Positions 12,455 to 63,769 of a stretch of 64,000 nucleotides of DNA are shown piece by piece; position 1 is the first letter of the stretch, and the number at the start of each line of letters is the position of its first letter. The notes below the pieces were generated by a model. The model made no database searches, was not told where the DNA came from, and saw only the letters and a list, made by a program, of their open reading frames with translations. Origin of the DNA: Chitinophagales bacterium (GTDB lineage Bacteria; Bacteroidota; Bacteroidia; Chitinophagales; BACL12); assembly GCA_041392955.1 (NCBI GenBank), contig JAWKLB010000007.1, forward strand, positions 24,567 through 88,566, given 5' to 3'. The position numbers and the translations under genes were made by a program.

Positions 12455-13045
12455 TCGGGGTGGAAAGTACTTCCATTTAATTATGAGCACTCTAACGTCC
12501 AAACCTCCATACGTCCATACCAGAGGTAGGGCAGGAGTAGGGGCAGGGGCATAAGCTGCTCCGTAGTTGAGTGTGTTCTTAAGCAGGTATATTTCCGTTA
12601 AAAGGAAGAGTGATGATGGGTGAATGGTGAATAGTGAATGGTGAATATCAGCCGGTTGGGTTTTTACATTACTGAGAAAATAATCTGCATCAATTAACGG
12701 TGCCATAACTTCCAAACCTCCATACGTCCATACGTCCATACCAGGGGCAGGAGCAGGGGCAGGGGCAGTCTGCTTCGAAGTTGAGATCGAACTTAATAAG
12801 AAGAGCAACTTGACAACATTTTTCGAGAGTGGAAAATGGAAAGTGTAGATTACACCCAATTAATTATAAGGCATCCTGACTTCGGACTTCCGGACGTCCC
12901 GACGTCAGGACTTTTATTCATTAAGCTTATACTCTAACCCCGCACTCCGCACCTAGAACTCCGCACCAATAGATTGGAACAATTCCCATTTCAAATATGT
13001 ACTCTAACCCGCCAACGTGACAACCTGGCAACGGACAACCTATCC
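12455..13045. repeat. Modular intergenic repeat array (family 1), second locus
   Basis: Heads are TAATTATGAGCACTCTAAC (~12478), CTTATACTCTAAC (~12925) and AAATATGTACTCTAAC (~12993). Oligo arrays include TCCATACG-type, GGGGCAGG-type, GTGAATG-type, GGACGTCC-type, CCGCAC/CTAGAAC-type and GACAAC-type. The connector CAATAGATTGGAACAATTCCCATTTC matches the one at ~5757 (near-identical) and ~6049 (one mismatch). Confidence 0.75.
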
Positions 13046-38900: not shown

Positions 38901-39012
38901 TTACGAGACCCTCACCTGCGGGAGGCAGGCACGAAGACACGAAGGCTCAAAGCAACACGAAGAAATTTCCTTGTGACCCCTTTGTGGCTTCGTGCCTTGG
39001 TGGCCTCGGTTA
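38889..39012. repeat. Intergenic repeat family 2 (full copy)
   Basis: TTGATGAAATAATTACGAGACC...CACGAAGACACGAAGGCTCAAAGCAACACGAAGAAATTTCCTTGTGACCCCTTTGTGGCTTCGTGCCTTGGTGGCCTCG contains internal CACGAAG/CTTCGTG inverted repeats. Confidence 0.7.
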
Positions 39013-42932: not shown

Positions 42933-43033
42933 TTGATGAAATAATTACGAGACCACAAAGACACGAAGGCTCAAAGCAGCACGAAGAAATTTCCTTGTGA
43001 CCCCTTGGTGCCTTTGCGCCATTGTGGCCTCGC
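42933..43033. repeat. Intergenic repeat family 2 (full copy)
   Basis: It starts with the same TTGATGAAATAATTACGAGACC as the 38889 copy, then ACACGAAGGCTCAAAGCAGCACGAAGAAATTTCCTTGTGACCCCTTGGTG...GTGGCCTCG. Confidence 0.7.
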
Positions 43034-53399: not shown

Positions 53400-53933
53400 T
53401 CATGGGTGAAACGGCAGTTCTTGTTCACATCTATTCCAAAATTCTTCTCCGTCAATGTCGCTAAGGTGGTTTTTGAAAAAGTAAACAGTTTCGTTTTTTA
53501 TCACTGGTTTCGCTTCGTTAAAAGGTTTCCAAAATTCCACGTTTTCCGAGTCAAACATTTTTTCTTTGTCTCTCGAGTAATTGAAAGCATTAAAAATATC
53601 TCTTGGCGGAAAATTGGTTCTGTCAGTAGATGGACTGTTTCCAACGAATTTTGGATAACGTGTCAAGTTTTCAAATTTGTCGTAATAGTCATTATAGTGA
53701 GAGTAACAGACCTGGTCAACGAGAACAGTGAAAAATAGCGCAGTTCCGAAATATGCTTTCCTTTCGTTGTCAAGAAAGTCTAAATAGTCAAAGTCTTTTG
53801 TTAAGGTCTGATATTGTACGGTAAATATTTTTCTGTCGTCAAAAGTATGTTTGCTTCTCTCTGGTATCTTGGAAAAGAACGTCTGAATGTCCTGTCGAAA
53901 CTGGCCGTTGTAATATTTGTCAAATTCATTCAT
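53400..53933 (-). CDS. Hypothetical 177-aa cassette protein
   Basis: It is AT-rich. Its start is 22 nt after a GTTAGCT box. No motif was recognised. Confidence 0.55.
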   Translation of the reverse strand: MNEFDKYYNGQFRQDIQTFFSKIPERSKHTFDDRKIFTVQYQTLTKDFDYLDFLDNERKAYFGTALFFTVLVDQVCYSHYNDYYDKFENLTRYPKFVGNSPSTDRTNFPPRDIFNAFNYSRDKEKMFDSENVEFWKPFNEAKPVIKNETVYFFKNHLSDIDGEEFWNRCEQELPFHP

Positions 53934-53955: not shown

Positions 53956-54570
53956 AGCTAACGTCAGTTCGTGCAAAGACTAAATTACAAAACAATTTTG
54001 CATTCTATCCCGGCTTATGGCCTGGATGAGAAGATTGATTTTTTAGTTCTCAGCGGGATGCTCCATAGATCGCAATAGTGTAAAAAAGACAAAAAACACC
54101 TCTTTCAGGCGCCTCTTGGAAGCACGTAATACACATGCCTTCGTGCGTCGGGCCGGTAGTAACAAACTCCAATTTTTGCAAAGCAAGGCGATCTACAAAT
54201 TCATCTATGATCCGCACCTGATGATCTTCCGGTATCATTTCCTAAAACGTCACCGGAAAAGCAGAGGTCTGACTTCGATCTATGCCACGTATCGTGCCCA
54301 TAATGGAAAGGTAGTACAAAACATAACACCGAAGTGCTCTTCCAGTATAAAGTTATACAGGGGTTTTGCACAGTCTGACGTTTTTCGGCTTGCCGCAGGG
54401 CTGGTATTGTTGCTGTGTCAGCCTGGCAACTGAAGCCGATTGAAAAACTGATGTTGAGGTTAACAACTAAAAGCCAAATAGAATTCGGCCAAGCCCGATA
54501 TAAGCTGATAGTAGTACAACTAATGATTGTTATGCCGTCCGCCAGCCTTGCGGCAAACCTTTTGTTATGC
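53956..54570 (-). other. attC-like site candidate, interrupted by IS remnant copy 1
   Basis: On the minus strand GCATAAC (54570-54564) begins 8 nt after the stop codon. The arms are TTTGCCGCAAGGCTGG / CCAGCCCTGCGGCAAG. The GTTAGCT box (53962-53956) lies on the far side of the 417-nt insertion. The site proper is long (~198 nt). Confidence 0.5.
53963..54379 (-). mobile_element. Internally deleted IS remnant with terminal inverted repeats (DUF772-type transposase N-terminus only), copy 1
   Basis: The TIRs are GTCAGTTCGTGCAAAG (53963-) and the reverse complement GTCAGACTGTGCAAAA (-54379). The minus strand encodes ...SAFPVTF*EMIPEDHQVRIIDEFVDRLALQKLEF, resembling an IS5/IS1182-type transposase N-terminus, with an in-frame stop and truncation. 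Confidence 0.65.
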
Positions 54571-54578
54571 GTAGCTTT

Positions 54579-55514
54579 TTAGACTGCTATTTTGTTTGTC
54601 TTCAAATACGTTTGCCTTTCTTTATTAAAATCTTTACCAAATTCGCTTCTATCATGGTACTCATTATATAGCGCAGCATTAAATTTGAAAAGATATGATG
54701 AAAGATAACCAATACTATCAATTTGGTTCTTTATGTTAAATGTTGTGTCGATGTTGAAAAGCCCTTTAATAAAATTAGCATTTATTTGCTTTATGTCGAC
54801 GTAGGAAACAGAGTCTTCAATATCTAAAATTGATGATTCGCCATTGTAGTTAAGCGTGTTTCTCAAATTTGAAGGAAACTCGGATTTAAAAATTGAAAAA
54901 TGATTTAGGAATGTTCTGTAAATTGCTGTTTCATCTGCATCGCAAGTTGGTAAAAAATCTCTTAAAGTATTTTCAAGTTGAATCCAATTTAGTTTGTGTA
55001 CACTTTCCCCCTTGAAGCTGAGTGTTAAAACAATATTGCCATTAGCATTTTCCTCTTTAAAGCAAAAATAGTAGTTGCCCGAATCTAAAGATATAGGAGT
55101 TGAATACACGGCAAGTGAAAAATCCTCAAGCCGCTTTTTTTGTCCACTGTTTAAAAAAATAAATCCTTTGCTTAAAAACCTAAAAAAACATGTAGTAGAA
55201 AAGAAAGCTAAATAATACAAAGTGACGAATGACCAACAGGGGGAGTTATTGCTTGATTTTATGAAGTCGCAGTATTGGATTATAGACTTGTTCATAAAAA
55301 GCTCGATGTCACAATGCAAAGCTTTATAATAATCACTTTTACTAATCTCAATTTCTACAGACTTACCAGCCAGCTTATTTAGAGATATTATGTTTTGAGT
55401 AATAATGTCTTTTAATGACCAGAATTGAAACTTATTCCTTTGAACACCATAGTTTACTAAAGGAATTATATGATTGTTTCTTATATCAAGAAAATTGTTT
55501 CCGAATAAGTCCAT
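54579..55514 (-). CDS. Hypothetical 311-aa protein, partner of the DGQHR protein
   Basis: It starts 5 nt after the DGQHR gene stop and shares its strand and AT-rich composition. No motif was recognised. Confidence 0.6.
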   Translation of the reverse strand: MDLFGNNFLDIRNNHIIPLVNYGVQRNKFQFWSLKDIITQNIISLNKLAGKSVEIEISKSDYYKALHCDIELFMNKSIIQYCDFIKSSNNSPCWSFVTLYYLAFFSTTCFFRFLSKGFIFLNSGQKKRLEDFSLAVYSTPISLDSGNYYFCFKEENANGNIVLTLSFKGESVHKLNWIQLENTLRDFLPTCDADETAIYRTFLNHFSIFKSEFPSNLRNTLNYNGESSILDIEDSVSYVDIKQINANFIKGLFNIDTTFNIKNQIDSIGYLSSYLFKFNAALYNEYHDRSEFGKDFNKERQTYLKTNKIAV

Positions 55515-55519
55515 AAGAG

Positions 55520-56515
55520 TTAAAATAAATCTTGACTGTTAAGGTTGTTATATCGTCTCTCGTATTCGTTTAACTCCTTTCTCATGTCAGAAACAACTTT
55601 GCTTAAAGTAGCGTTACTTGTTCCTGTATATGAATCAAAATTTAGTTTTGAAATAGGTTCAAGTACATTTGAGAATGATTCAACTTTTAAATCGCTATAT
55701 TCCTTAAGGGCCTTATCAACAACTTCATGAAAAACTGCAAACAAAGCTCTAAAAAATATTGAATTGGTTAGCTTAGCTTTTTCTGATTTGCTTTTTTTAA
55801 ATACTTTTTCTGCAGCTTCAAGATAATTTTTTACCCCTTTAAAGATTGTTTCATTATCCTTGTCTTGAAAGAAGCCGCTGTCAAAAAGTTCGCTGGTTGA
55901 TTGATTAAATGAAACTCTTGTTATCTTACCTACCTGGCTTTTAGCCGGCGAAAGTAAACCAGCCATTACGCTTTCTTTATTTAAGCGATCGAATAACTGT
56001 CTTTGTCTATCCTCTTTTTTAGTTTCTCTCCCTGAAAGATTTTTTATATCTAATAATAAAGTTGTCGGTACACCTTTTTGAGTAGTGTTAATGTCAATGA
56101 AAAGATTAACCTCTTGAGTCGTATTAAGTTTGTTAAAGATAATTACTGGGATTACATACCTTTTGGTTGATTTTAATAATCCATAAAGTCTATGTTGCCC
56201 ATCAAGTACCATAAAACTATTAGGGTTTGTAACAAAGGATATTTCTCCTTTACTTGGATCAATAGCAAATCTTGCATTGTCTTGGGCACTTAAAATAAGA
56301 GCAGAGGGAATAATACCTTTTAGCTCGTCCAAATAGCGAGCTATATCTTTGGCCCGAGATTCATTTAAAGTCCTCTGAAAGCCTTTCTCAGAATCTTCAT
56401 CTCGTCTCGAAACGAAGCAAACTGATTTAAGTACGTCATTTGGGAGTATTGATACATAAAAGGTTTTGTCATTTTGTGTACACTCTAAAGTTTTAAATCT
56501 TACTGTTTTGCTCAT
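55520..56515 (-). CDS. DGQHR-domain (DndB-like, ParB/Srx superfamily) protein
   Basis: FMVLDGQHRLYGL is an exact DGQHR motif. The upstream KGFQRTLNESRAKDIARYL is ParB/DndB-like, and the downstream FIDINTTQKGV fits the family. Confidence 0.8.
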   Translation of the reverse strand: MSKTVRFKTLECTQNDKTFYVSILPNDVLKSVCFVSRRDEDSEKGFQRTLNESRAKDIARYLDELKGIIPSALILSAQDNARFAIDPSKGEISFVTNPNSFMVLDGQHRLYGLLKSTKRYVIPVIIFNKLNTTQEVNLFIDINTTQKGVPTTLLLDIKNLSGRETKKEDRQRQLFDRLNKESVMAGLLSPAKSQVGKITRVSFNQSTSELFDSGFFQDKDNETIFKGVKNYLEAAEKVFKKSKSEKAKLTNSIFFRALFAVFHEVVDKALKEYSDLKVESFSNVLEPISKLNFDSYTGTSNATLSKVVSDMRKELNEYERRYNNLNSQDLF

Positions 56516-56537: not shown

Positions 56538-57120
56538 GCACAACGTCAGTTCGTGCAAAAACTAAATTACAAAACAATTTTGCATTCTATTCCGGTATAT
56601 GCCCTGGGTGAGAAGATTGATTTTTTAGTTCTCAGCGGGATACTCTATAGATCGCAATAGTGTAAAAAAGACAAAAAACACCTCTTTCAGACGCTTCAGA
56701 AGCACTTTTGGGCTTAAAATGTTGATGATGCCTCGCAGGCGCCCCATGGAAGCACCTTAATACGCAAGTCTTCGCGTGTTGCGCCGGTTGTAACAAACCC
56801 CAATTTTTGCATCTTCGGTCCATCTACAAATACATCTATGATCCGCACCTGATGATCTTCCGGTATCATTTCTTCAAACGTCACCGGAAAGGCAGAGGTA
56901 TGGCTTTGATCTATGCCATGTGTTGTGCACACAAAGCATTACACCGAAGTGCTCTATCAGAATACAGTTATACAGGGGTTTTTGCACAGTCTGACGGTTT
57001 GCATATTTGCGATGGGCGGGTTCACCAGCCTAATTATTCATGTGGTTTAAAACACATTCCACTACCGTCATACAGTCTGCAAGGTGCATAATCCCGCCTA
57101 TTGCAAATGTGTCGTTAGTG
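56538..57120 (-). other. attC-like site candidate, interrupted by IS remnant copy 2
   Basis: On the minus strand CACTAAC (57120-57114) begins 11 nt after the stop codon. The arms are ATTTGCAATAGGCGGG / CCCGCCCATCGCAAAT. GTTGTGC (56544-56538) lies beyond the insertion. The site proper is ~132 nt. Confidence 0.6.
56545..56995 (-). mobile_element. Internally deleted IS remnant with terminal inverted repeats, copy 2
   Basis: It has the same TIRs as copy 1. The minus strand encodes ...SAFPVTFEEMIPEDHQVRIIDVFVDGPKMQKLGFVTTGATRE. It is a direct repeat of 53963-54379 with visibly high but imperfect identity. Confidence 0.65.
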
Positions 57121-57131
57121 CCAGTGGGCTA

Positions 57132-58031
57132 TTATTCTATAACTACCTTTTTCACATATACTTTGTTGTCTTGCTGAACAGAAATCACATACACACCCGG
57201 AGAGAAGTAACTCATATCAATTACCTCATTGCTCGAGTTGATATTCTTTATTAAAACGGACTCTCCTTGCATATTGAGAATGCTCACCGTTACATTATGT
57301 ACATTTTCAATGTTTATGTAAACATTCTGAGCAAAGGAATACACCTCTGCTTCAAGAGTATTCCCCGAAGCAGGTATACCGCTTATCAATGTCCCGGCCA
57401 GCAATCCGGTTTCAGGTTCTGCGTTATATGCATAATCTTTGATAGTCAACACATCCGCACTATCTGACACAGAACATCTGATCCAGCCGTAATGATAGTT
57501 ATGATCACTGTCTGCAAAGTACACACCCAAGTAATGATCCGAGAAATTGAACCATCCACCGTAATCTGCAATTTGCAACCAATTTCCTGTTGAAAACTGT
57601 AAACTTATAACACCTGCCATTACTTGGGTTCCAAATCCATAAAAATCCAATTCAGGATTAATTAATACAGATTGGGACAAGTAATCTGGCTGATACCAAA
57701 ATGAGCCACTCCACGAATGATATAAAAATCCGCCGGCTATTTTATTCCCCTCTGCAGACGGGCCAGCCCAAATATAATTTCTAAACCTAATTTCAGGAAA
57801 GGATGAAAAATAGGTATAATAAGTATATAGTGCACTTGATTTGAGGAACCCAAAATCATTTATGCCATCATTATCCATATCCACAAGCGCCCCTTCACCA
57901 TTACTGTCTAAAACAATATCGGGATCGATATCAGTATATATCACCTCCGCTTCTGCTTTGTTAGCTATAACTAAAACACTTGCCGCAAAAGCTGCATACT
58001 CTGCCAACCGTATTGTTATATTACTTTGCAC
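57132..58031 (-). CDS. Secreted protein with a T9SS C-terminal sorting domain
   Basis: It has a signal peptide (AAFAASVLVIANKAEA). The Por tail is VSILNMQGESVLIKNI...SPGVYVISVQQDNKVYVKKVVIE. Confidence 0.7.
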   Translation of the reverse strand: MQSNITIRLAEYAAFAASVLVIANKAEAEVIYTDIDPDIVLDSNGEGALVDMDNDGINDFGFLKSSALYTYYTYFSSFPEIRFRNYIWAGPSAEGNKIAGGFLYHSWSGSFWYQPDYLSQSVLINPELDFYGFGTQVMAGVISLQFSTGNWLQIADYGGWFNFSDHYLGVYFADSDHNYHYGWIRCSVSDSADVLTIKDYAYNAEPETGLLAGTLISGIPASGNTLEAEVYSFAQNVYINIENVHNVTVSILNMQGESVLIKNINSSNEVIDMSYFSPGVYVISVQQDNKVYVKKVVIE

Positions 58032-61659: not shown

Positions 61660-62249
61660 TTAAATTTCTAATAAATTGGCATTGTCATTTAAGTCCGAGC
61701 CTGATTTCGGATCGTAACCGTCCCACAACCCATTTGTTATACCAAACCTTGTCCTTTTTATTCCTTTACTCTCCAAAATATCATCTTTGTCAACCCAACC
61801 GTACTTTTGGTCAAATATTTCCACGAAGATTTGCGACCGGTCCGAAATGATCTTAATTTTTTTCTGTCCCTTTGACAGTTCAAACACAAAATTCCAAACA
61901 CTTTAAAATCGTAATGAGATGAATCTACACTGTAACCGTAGAGCCCGGTGAGAAATTTAAAATGGTTTTCAAAAATGATTTTTAATTCTTGTGTCATTGA
62001 CTTTAGGATATTGCAGAAAGGTTTGCAGATTTGCGATGGGGGGGGTTCGCCACAAATGTTGATTCGGAGCACAAAACTTTCGGCTACCACAAAACTGGCC
62101 GCGAAAACTTTGACCCCGCCTATAGTAAAAGTGCTGTTAAGTACAGCGCTTATCATGGTGCCGTAAAGGTTCAAAATAAAAAAGAAGTCAAACATTTTTG
62201 TCAATAACCCTTCCACAATCGCCCTATAATCTTCTATTTGAGTATCCAA
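61660..62249 (-). pseudogene. Hypothetical cassette ORF, apparently frameshifted near 61887
   Basis: Two overlapping minus-strand ORFs lie in different frames (61758-62249 and 61660-61887). The tail of the first is R/K-rich junk, while the second reads protein-like (FELSKGQKKIKIISDRSQIFVEIFDQKYGWVDKDD). Confidence 0.4.
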
Positions 62250-62604: not shown

Positions 62605-63726
62605 TCATGTTTTACTGGAGGTGATGTCGGAAGATAGTTTTGGAATACTTGCAATTGTTTCCAGGGTTTCACTAATAATGTGTCCTGTATTGAATGGAAA
62701 TACTTCGTCATCCCATTTTCCCTGTAGGCCCCTAGAAATTTGAGCATACCTTTTTGTAGCATCAATTATGCTTTGTCTTATGGCTTGAAAAACCGGATGT
62801 TTTAAATTAATTCCTGATTTGCTACTATCCCAAGGCATATCGCGAGATTGCCCACGTAGTTTTACAATGGTACGAGTAAGAGAAATATTATAGTGTGGAT
62901 TGCCAATCATTCCTGACGAAAAACCAACCGAAAAATCGGTTAGGGCTCTTCCAATTAACCTATTATTACAATAAAGAAAAACTCCGTAAGAATTGTCTGG
63001 GTCACCAGGATGGTCTATTAGTCCTGAAATAATTTCAACATCTACGAATCTATCTTCAGCGGGAATTTTAGCGGAGAATTGTATTGGAAAAAGGTTGGGC
63101 GGATATGACCATTCATTTTCAAAACTTCGTGCATTTAATTTATCGGTGTTCACTATTATAGAAGTCCCTCTTTCGATAAACATTGAATATATTTCTGAAA
63201 GATGATTTTTTAATTCAATAAGAGCTGGTTCATCAAGCCTGATCCTTAGCCTGGTTAATTCAATTAAAGTTGTTGAAGGATTTAACTTGATTTTTGATTC
63301 GCTATAAGGCAACTTCCAACTTCCTCCGTCTGTAATCCAGGTGTCGTCAAATTTTATGGTAAATGATTTGTCATTTTGGTATCTTGAATGAATTGAAATG
63401 TCCTGCGCCAAGGCGACAACGGCTCTTTTACTGCCAACACCGAAATATCCAATCACATCATCTGAAATATCATTTGTCGTTTTACCCGGACTCACAATGT
63501 GGTCGAGTTTTTGTTCTTCAATCCCACCAGCGTTGTCCATAATGGAAATAGTTTGCTGCTGAATGTCTGCTTTAATTATTATTTCAAGGTCACGTTTTTT
63601 TGTCTTGGACCAAAGGTCGATGGCATTGTCAATAAGTTCGCACACTGACCTTTTTAAGTCATACTCAGAGATAATTGAAAGAAAAATTCGTTTTTCTGGT
63701 GTCGCGTCTAATACTTTGTCCGCCAT
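62605..63726 (-). CDS. GHKL-superfamily ATPase (HATPase_c_3 / MORC-like type)
   Basis: The N-box is CELIDNAIDLW, G1 is MDNAGGI and G2 is GYFGVGSKRA. The 373-aa protein has no recognisable kinase or topoisomerase partner domain. Confidence 0.8.
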   Translation of the reverse strand: MADKVLDATPEKRIFLSIISEYDLKRSVCELIDNAIDLWSKTKKRDLEIIIKADIQQQTISIMDNAGGIEEQKLDHIVSPGKTTNDISDDVIGYFGVGSKRAVVALAQDISIHSRYQNDKSFTIKFDDTWITDGGSWKLPYSESKIKLNPSTTLIELTRLRIRLDEPALIELKNHLSEIYSMFIERGTSIIVNTDKLNARSFENEWSYPPNLFPIQFSAKIPAEDRFVDVEIISGLIDHPGDPDNSYGVFLYCNNRLIGRALTDFSVGFSSGMIGNPHYNISLTRTIVKLRGQSRDMPWDSSKSGINLKHPVFQAIRQSIIDATKRYAQISRGLQGKWDDEVFPFNTGHIISETLETIASIPKLSSDITSSKT

Positions 63727-63769
63727 GTTATTAGTTTTTGATGAGTAATTGGTCCAATGTTAACGTTGC

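Follow-up and report, generated by a model that had tools for sequence, protein, structure and literature searches.

A DGQHR-domain protein and its conserved partner as a candidate two-gene defence or exclusion module in a Chitinophagales bacterium

The gene pair and its DGQHR-domain protein

The DNA analysed here, referred to as the window, is a 64,000-nucleotide stretch of contig JAWKLB010000007.1 (assembly GCA_041392955.1) from a Chitinophagales bacterium. Two adjacent genes on its minus strand are the subject of this report, one for a DGQHR-domain protein of 331 amino acids (positions 55520..56515, pI 9.2) and one for a partner protein of 311 amino acids (54579..55514, pI 6.5). They are separated by a spacer of 5 nt (55515..55519, minus strand; CTCTT on the gene strand), which is consistent with an operon or with translational coupling. 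Both open reading frames (ORFs) and the 5-nt gap were exactly as described in a first-pass annotation of the window, and the sequences FMVLDGQHRLYGLL and EKGFQRTLNESRAKDIARYLDE are present in the 331-aa protein. Based on its conservation and distribution, we consider this pair a good candidate for a new system that acts against phages or plasmids.

The 331-aa protein is a member of the DGQHR domain/DndB superfamily by score, motifs and ParB/Srx fold. It scored 160.1 bits against TIGR03187 (DGQHR domain; cutoff 58.85) and 65.6 against the Pfam DndB model PF14072 (cutoff 29.1). The QR pair, the DGQHR pentapeptide and FxxxN are the signature motifs described for such domains (PMC4619093). In an alignment of 32 relatives, G45-F-Q-R48, D105-G-Q-H-R109, F139-I-D-I-N143 and many other positions were invariant across phyla, as was the full nucleoside triphosphate (NTP)-pocket motif set of the domain. 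The AlphaFold2 model of the protein had two domains (predicted local distance difference test, pLDDT, 80; predicted template modelling score, pTM, 0.55). Foldseek searches with this model matched the ParB N-domain (5k5a, probability 0.99), PadC (0.98) and sulfiredoxin (0.92), and weakly SspE; no solved structure was close to the protein by sequence. The layout is of the DndB type, with an N-terminal ParB/Srx-fold NTP-binding domain followed by a C-terminal helical domain. The protein is basic and therefore probably DNA-binding. A 100%-identical protein has been recorded from a Chitinophagales metagenome-assembled genome (MAG), and no fusions to other domains were seen among the 120 matches listed.

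The last residue of the DGQHR protein (window 55520-55522) is an invariant Phe, and all 32 relatives, across phyla, end in (D/N)(I/L/M)F-COOH. We speculate that this C-terminal Phe might serve the partner as a docking peptide. A HEPN domain has been suggested in the DndB C-terminus (PMC3632139); an active one is unlikely in this protein because its local Rx6H is not conserved among the 32 relatives.

Membership of the superfamily did not extend to the three named subfamilies that were compared. The protein scored 33.7 bits against the DndB equivalog TIGR03233 (cutoff 328) and 65.9 bits against the DpdB equivalog NF041060 (cutoff 300; NCBIfam E-value 3e-18). Its second-best NCBIfam match, TIGR04172 (DNA phosphorothioation-associated DGQHR protein 1), reached 98.9 bits against a cutoff of 450 and aligned with the N-terminal ~150 residues alone. 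In PADLOC, it matched DpdB and DndB models alone, with DpdB at the top (5.5e-20). The DGQHR half of the pair represents a known domain in a new subfamily. The observation in the first-pass annotation that no dnd or dpd genes lie nearby also stood. The DndB, DndC, DndD, DndE and DptH proteins of Acinetobacter baumannii, used as tblastn queries, had zero matches in the 64-kb window, where there is no dndC/D/E, and none of the Dnd, Dpd or Ssp models was matched in a PADLOC scan of 45 window ORFs.

The partner family and its pairing with DGQHR proteins

The partner had been labelled an orphan. It is indeed unannotated, but it has a large family: a word-indexed search identified 70 homologues with at least 40% identity (40-90%, ~303-321 aa), all named "hypothetical", and a profile search of 1.84 billion representatives identified at least 484 partner-family clusters at 50% identity, 174 of them at E<=1e-10. 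The partner matched no Pfam (E<=1), NCBIfam, PADLOC or PHROGs model, and a sequence profile search of the PDB gave matches at noise level. Almost all of the family matches listed were single-domain proteins of 290-350 aa. No fusions were found among the best 150 of the 484 clusters and 78 of a second profile search, all of which were 72-351 aa long.

Alignment of the family revealed a strongly conserved set of residues. In 127 members, W94, Y100, Y101, H173, R218, N222 and Y223 were invariant, and W177, N219, S215, R112 and E195 were conserved at >=91%. When 23 members that included the plasmid and phage versions discussed below were aligned, ten residues were invariant (W94, Y100, Y101, R112, H173, W177, S215, R218, N222 and Y223). 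These residues fall within the family motifs WxxVTxYYxxFF...R, H(K/E)xxW and PSxLRNxxNY, with ~46-49 residues between H173 and N219/N222. As the ten invariant positions include aromatic residues, His, Arg, Asn and Tyr, they suggest a catalytic or ligand-binding site. The combination of a conserved polar/aromatic core with a variable, fast-evolving periphery suggests that the partner is an enzyme or a ligand-binding protein.

The AlphaFold2 model of the partner (pLDDT 91, pTM 0.91) was mostly helical with two beta-hairpins (alpha+beta). Foldseek searches with this model produced no credible match, the best being E 0.7 with a template modelling (TM) score <0.25 in the PDB and E 0.55 in BFVD. Several candidate identities were tried and rejected. 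A claim of a nuclease, NTPase, pore-former or HEPN fold was rejected for want of credible Foldseek matches in these two databases. A membrane effector was rejected on hydropathy, as the Kyte-Doolittle 19-residue maximum was mostly <1.6; the one hydrophobic helix (94-113) is inside the compact, high-confidence model. A relationship to the C-terminal domain of the DGQHR protein was given a probability of 0.1% by hhalign. The earlier proposal that the 311-aa protein is the effector of the pair was therefore left unsupported, with no nuclease, NTPase or membrane fold to carry it. The partner is a soluble protein of an undescribed family, and its fold, to judge from the PDB and BFVD, is undescribed as well.

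The pairing itself is highly conserved. Gaps and divergences were compared in 19 distinct loci (171 locus pairs). The first-pass annotation had made its reading depend on the partner being conserved beside DGQHR genes elsewhere, and this arrangement was retained in 19/19 loci: the DGQHR gene was immediately upstream of the partner gene wherever upstream sequence was available, with a gap of -4 to +14 nt. The divergences of the two proteins were correlated (r = 0.94), a value reached by 0/2000 Mantel permutations. The partner diverges ~1.5-2x faster than the DGQHR protein, as illustrated by the identities of relatives to the window proteins (DGQHR protein versus partner, 82% vs 64%, 73% vs 46%, 65% vs 33% and 55% vs 27%). 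Such faster evolution is often seen in specificity subunits. One locus, L026, encodes the same partner protein as locus L025 but has a DGQHR-partner spacer of 159 nt (2158-2316) in place of 4 nt (L025 3100-3103). About 50 nt were matched twice, and the longer spacer points to a small duplication or insertion by which the tight coupling would be lost.

The pair spans four bacterial phyla and is carried on integron cassettes, plasmids and a filamentous prophage and in defence islands. The Bacteroidota loci are from two Dyadobacter, Runella, Flavobacterium, Pedobacter and several MAGs. Other hosts include Neisseriaceae (165 contigs), Acinetobacter including A. baumannii, Pseudomonas, Providencia, Shouchella/Priestia and Streptomyces cinereus. 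This broad and patchy host range indicates horizontal gene transfer. In addition, DNA homology between loci stops at coding or cassette borders, which identifies the pair as the moving unit. To judge from these sequences, the pair is a self-contained operon of two genes and spreads horizontally as a unit.

More distant relatives keep the arrangement as well. In one remote pair (L027) the DGQHR and partner genes overlap by 4 nt, and searches with the DGQHR protein led to still more remote pairs on the Acinetobacter plasmid pTR3_4, on Providencia plasmids and in the Pseudomonas filamentous phage PfAC19. In these last pairs, which are on mobile genetic elements (MGEs), the partner could be detected by profile comparison alone: the downstream "hypothetical protein" retains the family motifs and was aligned to the family by hhalign with E-values of 4e-5, 1e-6 and 4e-9.

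Genomic neighbourhoods and cassette structure

Genes were read within ~10 kb of the pair, with no background rate for defence-gene neighbours. Defence, toxin-antitoxin and restriction-modification genes were frequent in these neighbourhoods. In the Dyadobacter CY261 locus, DrmA/DrmB-like (DISARM) genes are directly upstream of the pair. Single loci had, respectively, AbiH, CHAT and LmuB_C (AbiH/Lamassu) genes; an OLD-type AAA_21/TOPRIM protein; HNH, DpnII fragments, Peptidase_M78 and WYL; WYL and RtcB; and a PIN toxin beside the pair. Downstream of the pair in a Bacteroidetes MAG (L003, 9679-16067), five copies of a ~350-nt repeat lie between cassettes that encode DarT-Macro (DarTG-type), a GNAT acetyltransferase, a trypsin-like protease and small unknown proteins. 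On sequence features, this array is integron-like, with unusually long repeats that resemble recombination sites.

Three further settings were on MGEs. On the 10-kb Acinetobacter plasmid pTR3_4 (427-4303), the pair directly follows genes for a methyltransferase and a NotI-family restriction endonuclease, and BrnTA is also present. On Providencia plasmids (NZ_CP120529.1, 2793-7289), the pair is inserted between umuD and umuC, and the pair is also found beside plasmid partition genes. In the 12.9-kb Pf phage PfAC19 (OR863248.1, 3974-5953), the pair is beside the repressor in the accessory region, which in other Pf phages holds Gabija, Kiwa, retron, Avs and similar systems (PMC11878078). The entry for PfAC19 in the same paper names a toxin-antitoxin (TA) system and PfsE alone, and the pair has therefore gone unrecognised in this phage. 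Overall, we regard these neighbourhoods as suggestive of a defence or exclusion role.

The pair of A. baumannii (JBAWNB010000004.1, 931-12996) has dndBCDE on one side and, on the other, a DptH gene that is encoded on the opposite strand and scores 981 bits against TIGR03237. An N-run in a TEA-repeat region splits the DptH reading frame in the gene calls. In this locus a canonical dndB is directly followed by dndC, and the pair is separate, after dndE. The first-pass annotation had described a stand-alone pair, which holds for 18/19 loci and fails for this one, where the pair is inside a dnd locus. A DGQHR protein between dptE and dptH was also listed by ProPhylo (PMC3226654), and proteins of the TIGR04172 type are likewise DGQHR proteins between dnd modification and dpt restriction genes. 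The A. baumannii locus, the ProPhylo listing and the rank of TIGR04172 as second-best NCBIfam match could all be taken to mean that the pair is an accessory of phosphorothioation, either a phosphorothioate-sensing restriction module like SspE or a Dnd regulator, with dnd or ssp genes elsewhere in the genome. We consider this very unlikely. Linkage to dnd was found in 1/19 loci, and no dnd homologue was identified in the window or within +/-10 kb of any locus except that of A. baumannii. The TIGR04172 scores (98.9 for the window protein, 90.8 for that of A. baumannii) are far from the cutoff of 450 and indicate a different subfamily. Moreover, the 10-kb plasmid and the 12.9-kb Pf phage leave too little room for a dnd cluster, and those parts of them that were read contain no gene annotated as dnd.

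A second explanation is that the pair is a DNA-modification module. DpdB works with a single enzymatic partner, DpdA, and DpdB is the top PADLOC match of the DGQHR protein, with an NCBIfam match as well. By analogy, the DGQHR ATPase would load or activate a partner that is a new DNA-modifying enzyme, acting by base exchange or by decoration of the backbone or bases, and MGEs would use it to mark and protect their own DNA in an anti-restriction or epigenetic role. The enzyme-like set of invariant residues in the partner would suit such a function, as would the occurrence of the pair inside a dnd modification-restriction locus and on plasmids and a filamentous prophage, where self-protection is useful. 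Yet the DGQHR protein is far below the DpdB cutoff (65.9 vs 300), and the pair is accompanied by neither precursor-biosynthesis genes (no dpdC-K or preQ0 genes were nearby) nor cognate restriction genes. The partner is also not a TGT-family transglycosylase, as it has no Pfam match and a predicted helical alpha+beta fold that is not a TIM barrel. Given these differences, this explanation appears unlikely.

In the window, the pair was found between attC-like sites, all features of which are on the minus strand. The upstream site begins with a 5' part (R''-L''-loop-L', 56996..57122; R'' at 57122-57114) that belongs to the preceding cassette (57132-58031), which encodes a protein with a type IX secretion system (T9SS) tail. 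It ends with the R' box GTTGTGC, of the GTTGVGC type (56538..56544), where the 5' boundary of the cassette falls at G|TT (56544/56543). The cassette's own attC has a 5' part at 54380..54570, with R'' GCATAAC at 54570-54564 and an L''/L' stem (54559-54542 x 54404-54387) that is an 18-nt inverted repeat of 89%. Its R' box, GTTAGCT (53956..53962), is the 3' boundary of the cassette and the start of the next one (gene 53400-53933). The R'' sequence GCATAAC is complementary to the cassette start GTTGTGC save for one G.T pair.

These attC-like flanks had been noted before and are real, but each is interrupted immediately 5' of GTT by an element of 451 bp or 417 bp that resembles a miniature inverted-repeat transposable element (MITE). 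Copy B (451 bp, 56545..56995) is inside the upstream attC between AAC and GTT, and copy A (417 bp, 53963..54379) has the same insertion position and orientation in the cassette's own attC. Without its MITE, the upstream attC folds end to end on the bottom strand (z = -4.0). The minimum-energy fold of the cassette's own attC has no long-range pairing (z -1.1 to -1.7), though the 18-nt stem repeat is present. An intact attC-like site with 23-nt stems, 87% complementary (z about -6), was identified at 63765-63908, upstream of a gene for a 373-aa GHKL/HATPase_c_3 protein (62605-63726). A 70%-similar partial copy of the loop of this site is at 62051-62120, within the doubtful ORF 61758-62249. As these three attC-like sites were the only ones seen in 51.5-64 kb, some of the "cassettes" would be multi-gene.

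Comparison with related loci was informative about the cassette borders. Similarity to the closest cassettes, L024 (81%) and L025 (76%), begins at 56543-56545, the G|TT crossover point. L025 has an uninterrupted ~190-nt attC homologous to that of the window, and the start of that cassette, GTTGTAC, forms a perfect complement with its own R'', GTACAAC. With attC sites on both sides, a conserved pairing and homology to related cassettes that starts at G|TT, the single mobile unit proposed in the first-pass annotation was borne out. The boundaries support an assignment of the window pair as one integron-type cassette in a cassette array, though not as part of a complete integron, as no integrase domain was found among the ORFs scanned on either side.

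The cassette setting bears on a third explanation, that the pair is an addiction or TA-like module. Sedentary integrons commonly hold TA cassettes. In such a module, the DGQHR protein would be a DNA-binding autorepressor or antidote, like DndB, and the partner would be the toxin; the module would stabilise arrays, plasmids and prophages, and phage protection would not be required. The report of DndB as an ATP-modulated transcriptional repressor (PMC4507180; PMC10853773) fits this idea, as do the tight coupling of the two genes and their presence in cassette arrays and beside plasmid partition genes. However, the proteins (331 and 311 aa) are ~3x the size of typical type II TA components (~70-150 aa, from known families), and neither matched a TA family. 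In addition, the complete NTP-binding motif set is invariant across phyla, which is beyond the needs of a repressor, and the putative toxin is the faster-evolving of the two proteins, the reverse of what is usual. We therefore regard a TA-like module as quite unlikely.

The two MITE-like copies are ~87-90% identical, differ by 16-bp and 48-bp indels and have 15-bp terminal inverted repeats (GTCAGACTGTGCAAA / GTCAGTTCGTGCAAA). Both have one orientation and lie exactly between AAC and GTT of an attC R' box, and neither shows an obvious target duplication. Inside the element is an ORF remnant similar to the N-terminal part of IS5/IS1182-type transposases (DUF772 + DDE), with ~50% identity over 32 aa. 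As the remnant has no Pfam match, the evidence for a transposase origin is tblastn similarity to full-length IS5/IS1182-type genes. No exact copies of the MITE end were found in metagenomes. The element looks like a non-autonomous insertion sequence (IS) that targets attC, of a family that we take to be different from the known IS1111-attC elements. Each copy has a terminator-like hairpin and T-run on the strand of the cassette genes (54090-54118 in copy A, about 56660-56700 in copy B), and the 3' end of the MITE abuts the start of the next cassette, with the ATG ~25-30 nt further on. The element might thereby shield cassette transcription or drive it anew.

Other features of the window were recorded alongside the pair. 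T9SS sorting domains are present in neighbouring genes, which fits an origin in Bacteroidota. The PADLOC scan also gave weak single matches, not assigned to particular ORFs, to SduA/DUF4263 (1.7e-7), CARF-like models, subtilase and a GlgB-like model. Two intergenic repeat families were observed, one of 57-64-nt units containing AATTATGAGTACTCTAACCC (5617-6115 and 12464-13032) and a second of 79-nt units containing TTCCTTGTGACCCCTT (36898-36976, 38930-39008 and 42954-43032). Rfam and tRNA scans of the window found nothing, and a sigma-70 promoter scan, which is uninformative for Bacteroidota promoters, showed no enrichment (16 vs 12.3 +/- 2.9).

A candidate module on the ParB-sensor theme

Comparison with known systems places the pair closest to those in which a ParB-like sensor is coupled to a second activity. 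The DUF262/ParB domains of GmrSD and SspE are NTPase sensors that activate nucleases (PMC12065111; PMC4619093). GmrSD is either fused or encoded by two adjacent genes (~300 aa and ~240 aa), and both GmrSD and SspE occur in defence islands and on MGEs (PMC4619093, PMC12065111). The pair resembles GmrS + GmrD and SspE in having a ParB/Srx fold with DGQ(Q/H)R, the QR pair and FxxxN, a helical middle domain and a coupled second activity. It differs in that its ParB domain belongs to the DGQHR/DndB clade and not to DUF262, and in that no fused form was seen among the matches with lengths listed. Furthermore, the partner is not a DUF1524/HNH protein and has no Pfam match, no (E/D)H...N...N motif and no fold match. 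A type IV restriction system of the GmrSD/SspE type was rejected because the partner has no DUF1524 His-Me finger.

The Menshen protein NsnA offers another likeness, as it is a ParB/DUF262-type sensor with a helical C-domain that protects against phages together with separate partners (PMC12065111). Menshen (NsnABC), however, has three genes, including an ABC ATPase, and other effectors, and the pair had no PADLOC match to the Menshen models. With DndB, the DGQHR protein shares PF14072, the DGQHR domain, the ParB-like N-domain and the helical C-domain, and the A. baumannii pair lies next to dndBCDE. Unlike canonical DndB, it is unlinked to dndCDE in 18/19 loci and has an obligate partner gene, which is unreported for DndB. 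The likeness to DpdB is that of a DGQHR ATPase working with one enzymatic partner. No one system in PADLOC-DB v2 (2023) was matched by both genes of the pair, and no description of the pair was found in the literature. The architecture is a new form of the ParB-sensor-plus-partner theme.

Our preferred interpretation, to which we assign a rough probability of 0.55, is that the two genes form a module for defence or exclusion, a variation on the ParB/DUF262 NTPase-sensor theme. Modelled on GmrS+GmrD, SspE and Menshen NsnA, the DGQHR protein and its partner would act as one complex that defends against phages or other mobile DNA, or that excludes competitors. The DGQHR protein would load on or scan DNA through the binding and hydrolysis of ATP or GTP, and this use of NTP would gate the second activity, that of the partner. 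Binding of both ATP and GTP has been reported for a DndB-like protein (bioRxiv 10.1101/2025.10.10.680097), and a nuclease or NTPase role of DndB is still possible (PMC10853773). As the partner evolves faster and lacks an effector-like fold, the roles could also be reversed, with the partner supplying specificity and the ParB-fold protein acting as a nuclease or NTPase effector.

Several observations weigh against a defence or exclusion module. A number of the loci are among housekeeping genes (glycoside hydrolases, CTP synthase, alaS), and the defence-island signal, read without a background rate, is not universal. The partner resembles no class of effector, whether nuclease, NTPase, pore-former or another. 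No close partner homologues were found on sequenced plasmids or phages, where remote relatives alone occur. No integron integrase was identified among the ORFs scanned on either side of the pair in the window, although the array may extend past position 64000.

We put forward a bolder version of the defence interpretation more tentatively, as falling somewhat short of an even chance. In this version, the pair would be an unrecognised and widespread two-gene immune system in Neisseria, A. baumannii, P. aeruginosa Pf prophages, Providencia plasmids and environmental Bacteroidota. The partner would have a new fold and represent a new enzymatic effector or specificity class, with a catalytic centre of H173, R218, N222, Y223 and R112, and it would be gated by an ATP/GTP-binding, ParB-like DNA clamp, the DGQHR protein.

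Should the pair prove to be a system of defence or exclusion, it would contribute a compact module of ~2 kb. Many candidate defence pairs are known by now; this one is testable and widespread, and it occurs in pathogens and on MGEs. The locus also documents Bacteroidota integron-type cassettes with candidate immune genes, together with what appears to be an attC-specific MITE. Because the pair is present in clinically relevant hosts, Pf prophages and plasmids, it may affect the outcomes of phage therapy and plasmid traffic. If our interpretation is correct, the partner, for which no relative with a known structure or function was detected, could reveal new biochemistry on nucleic acids or nucleotides. 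It would also provide a concrete role for stand-alone DGQHR/DndB-like proteins, which are common in genomes and which JGI names "DNA sulfur modification protein DndB" even where, in the loci examined, no dnd genes are nearby.

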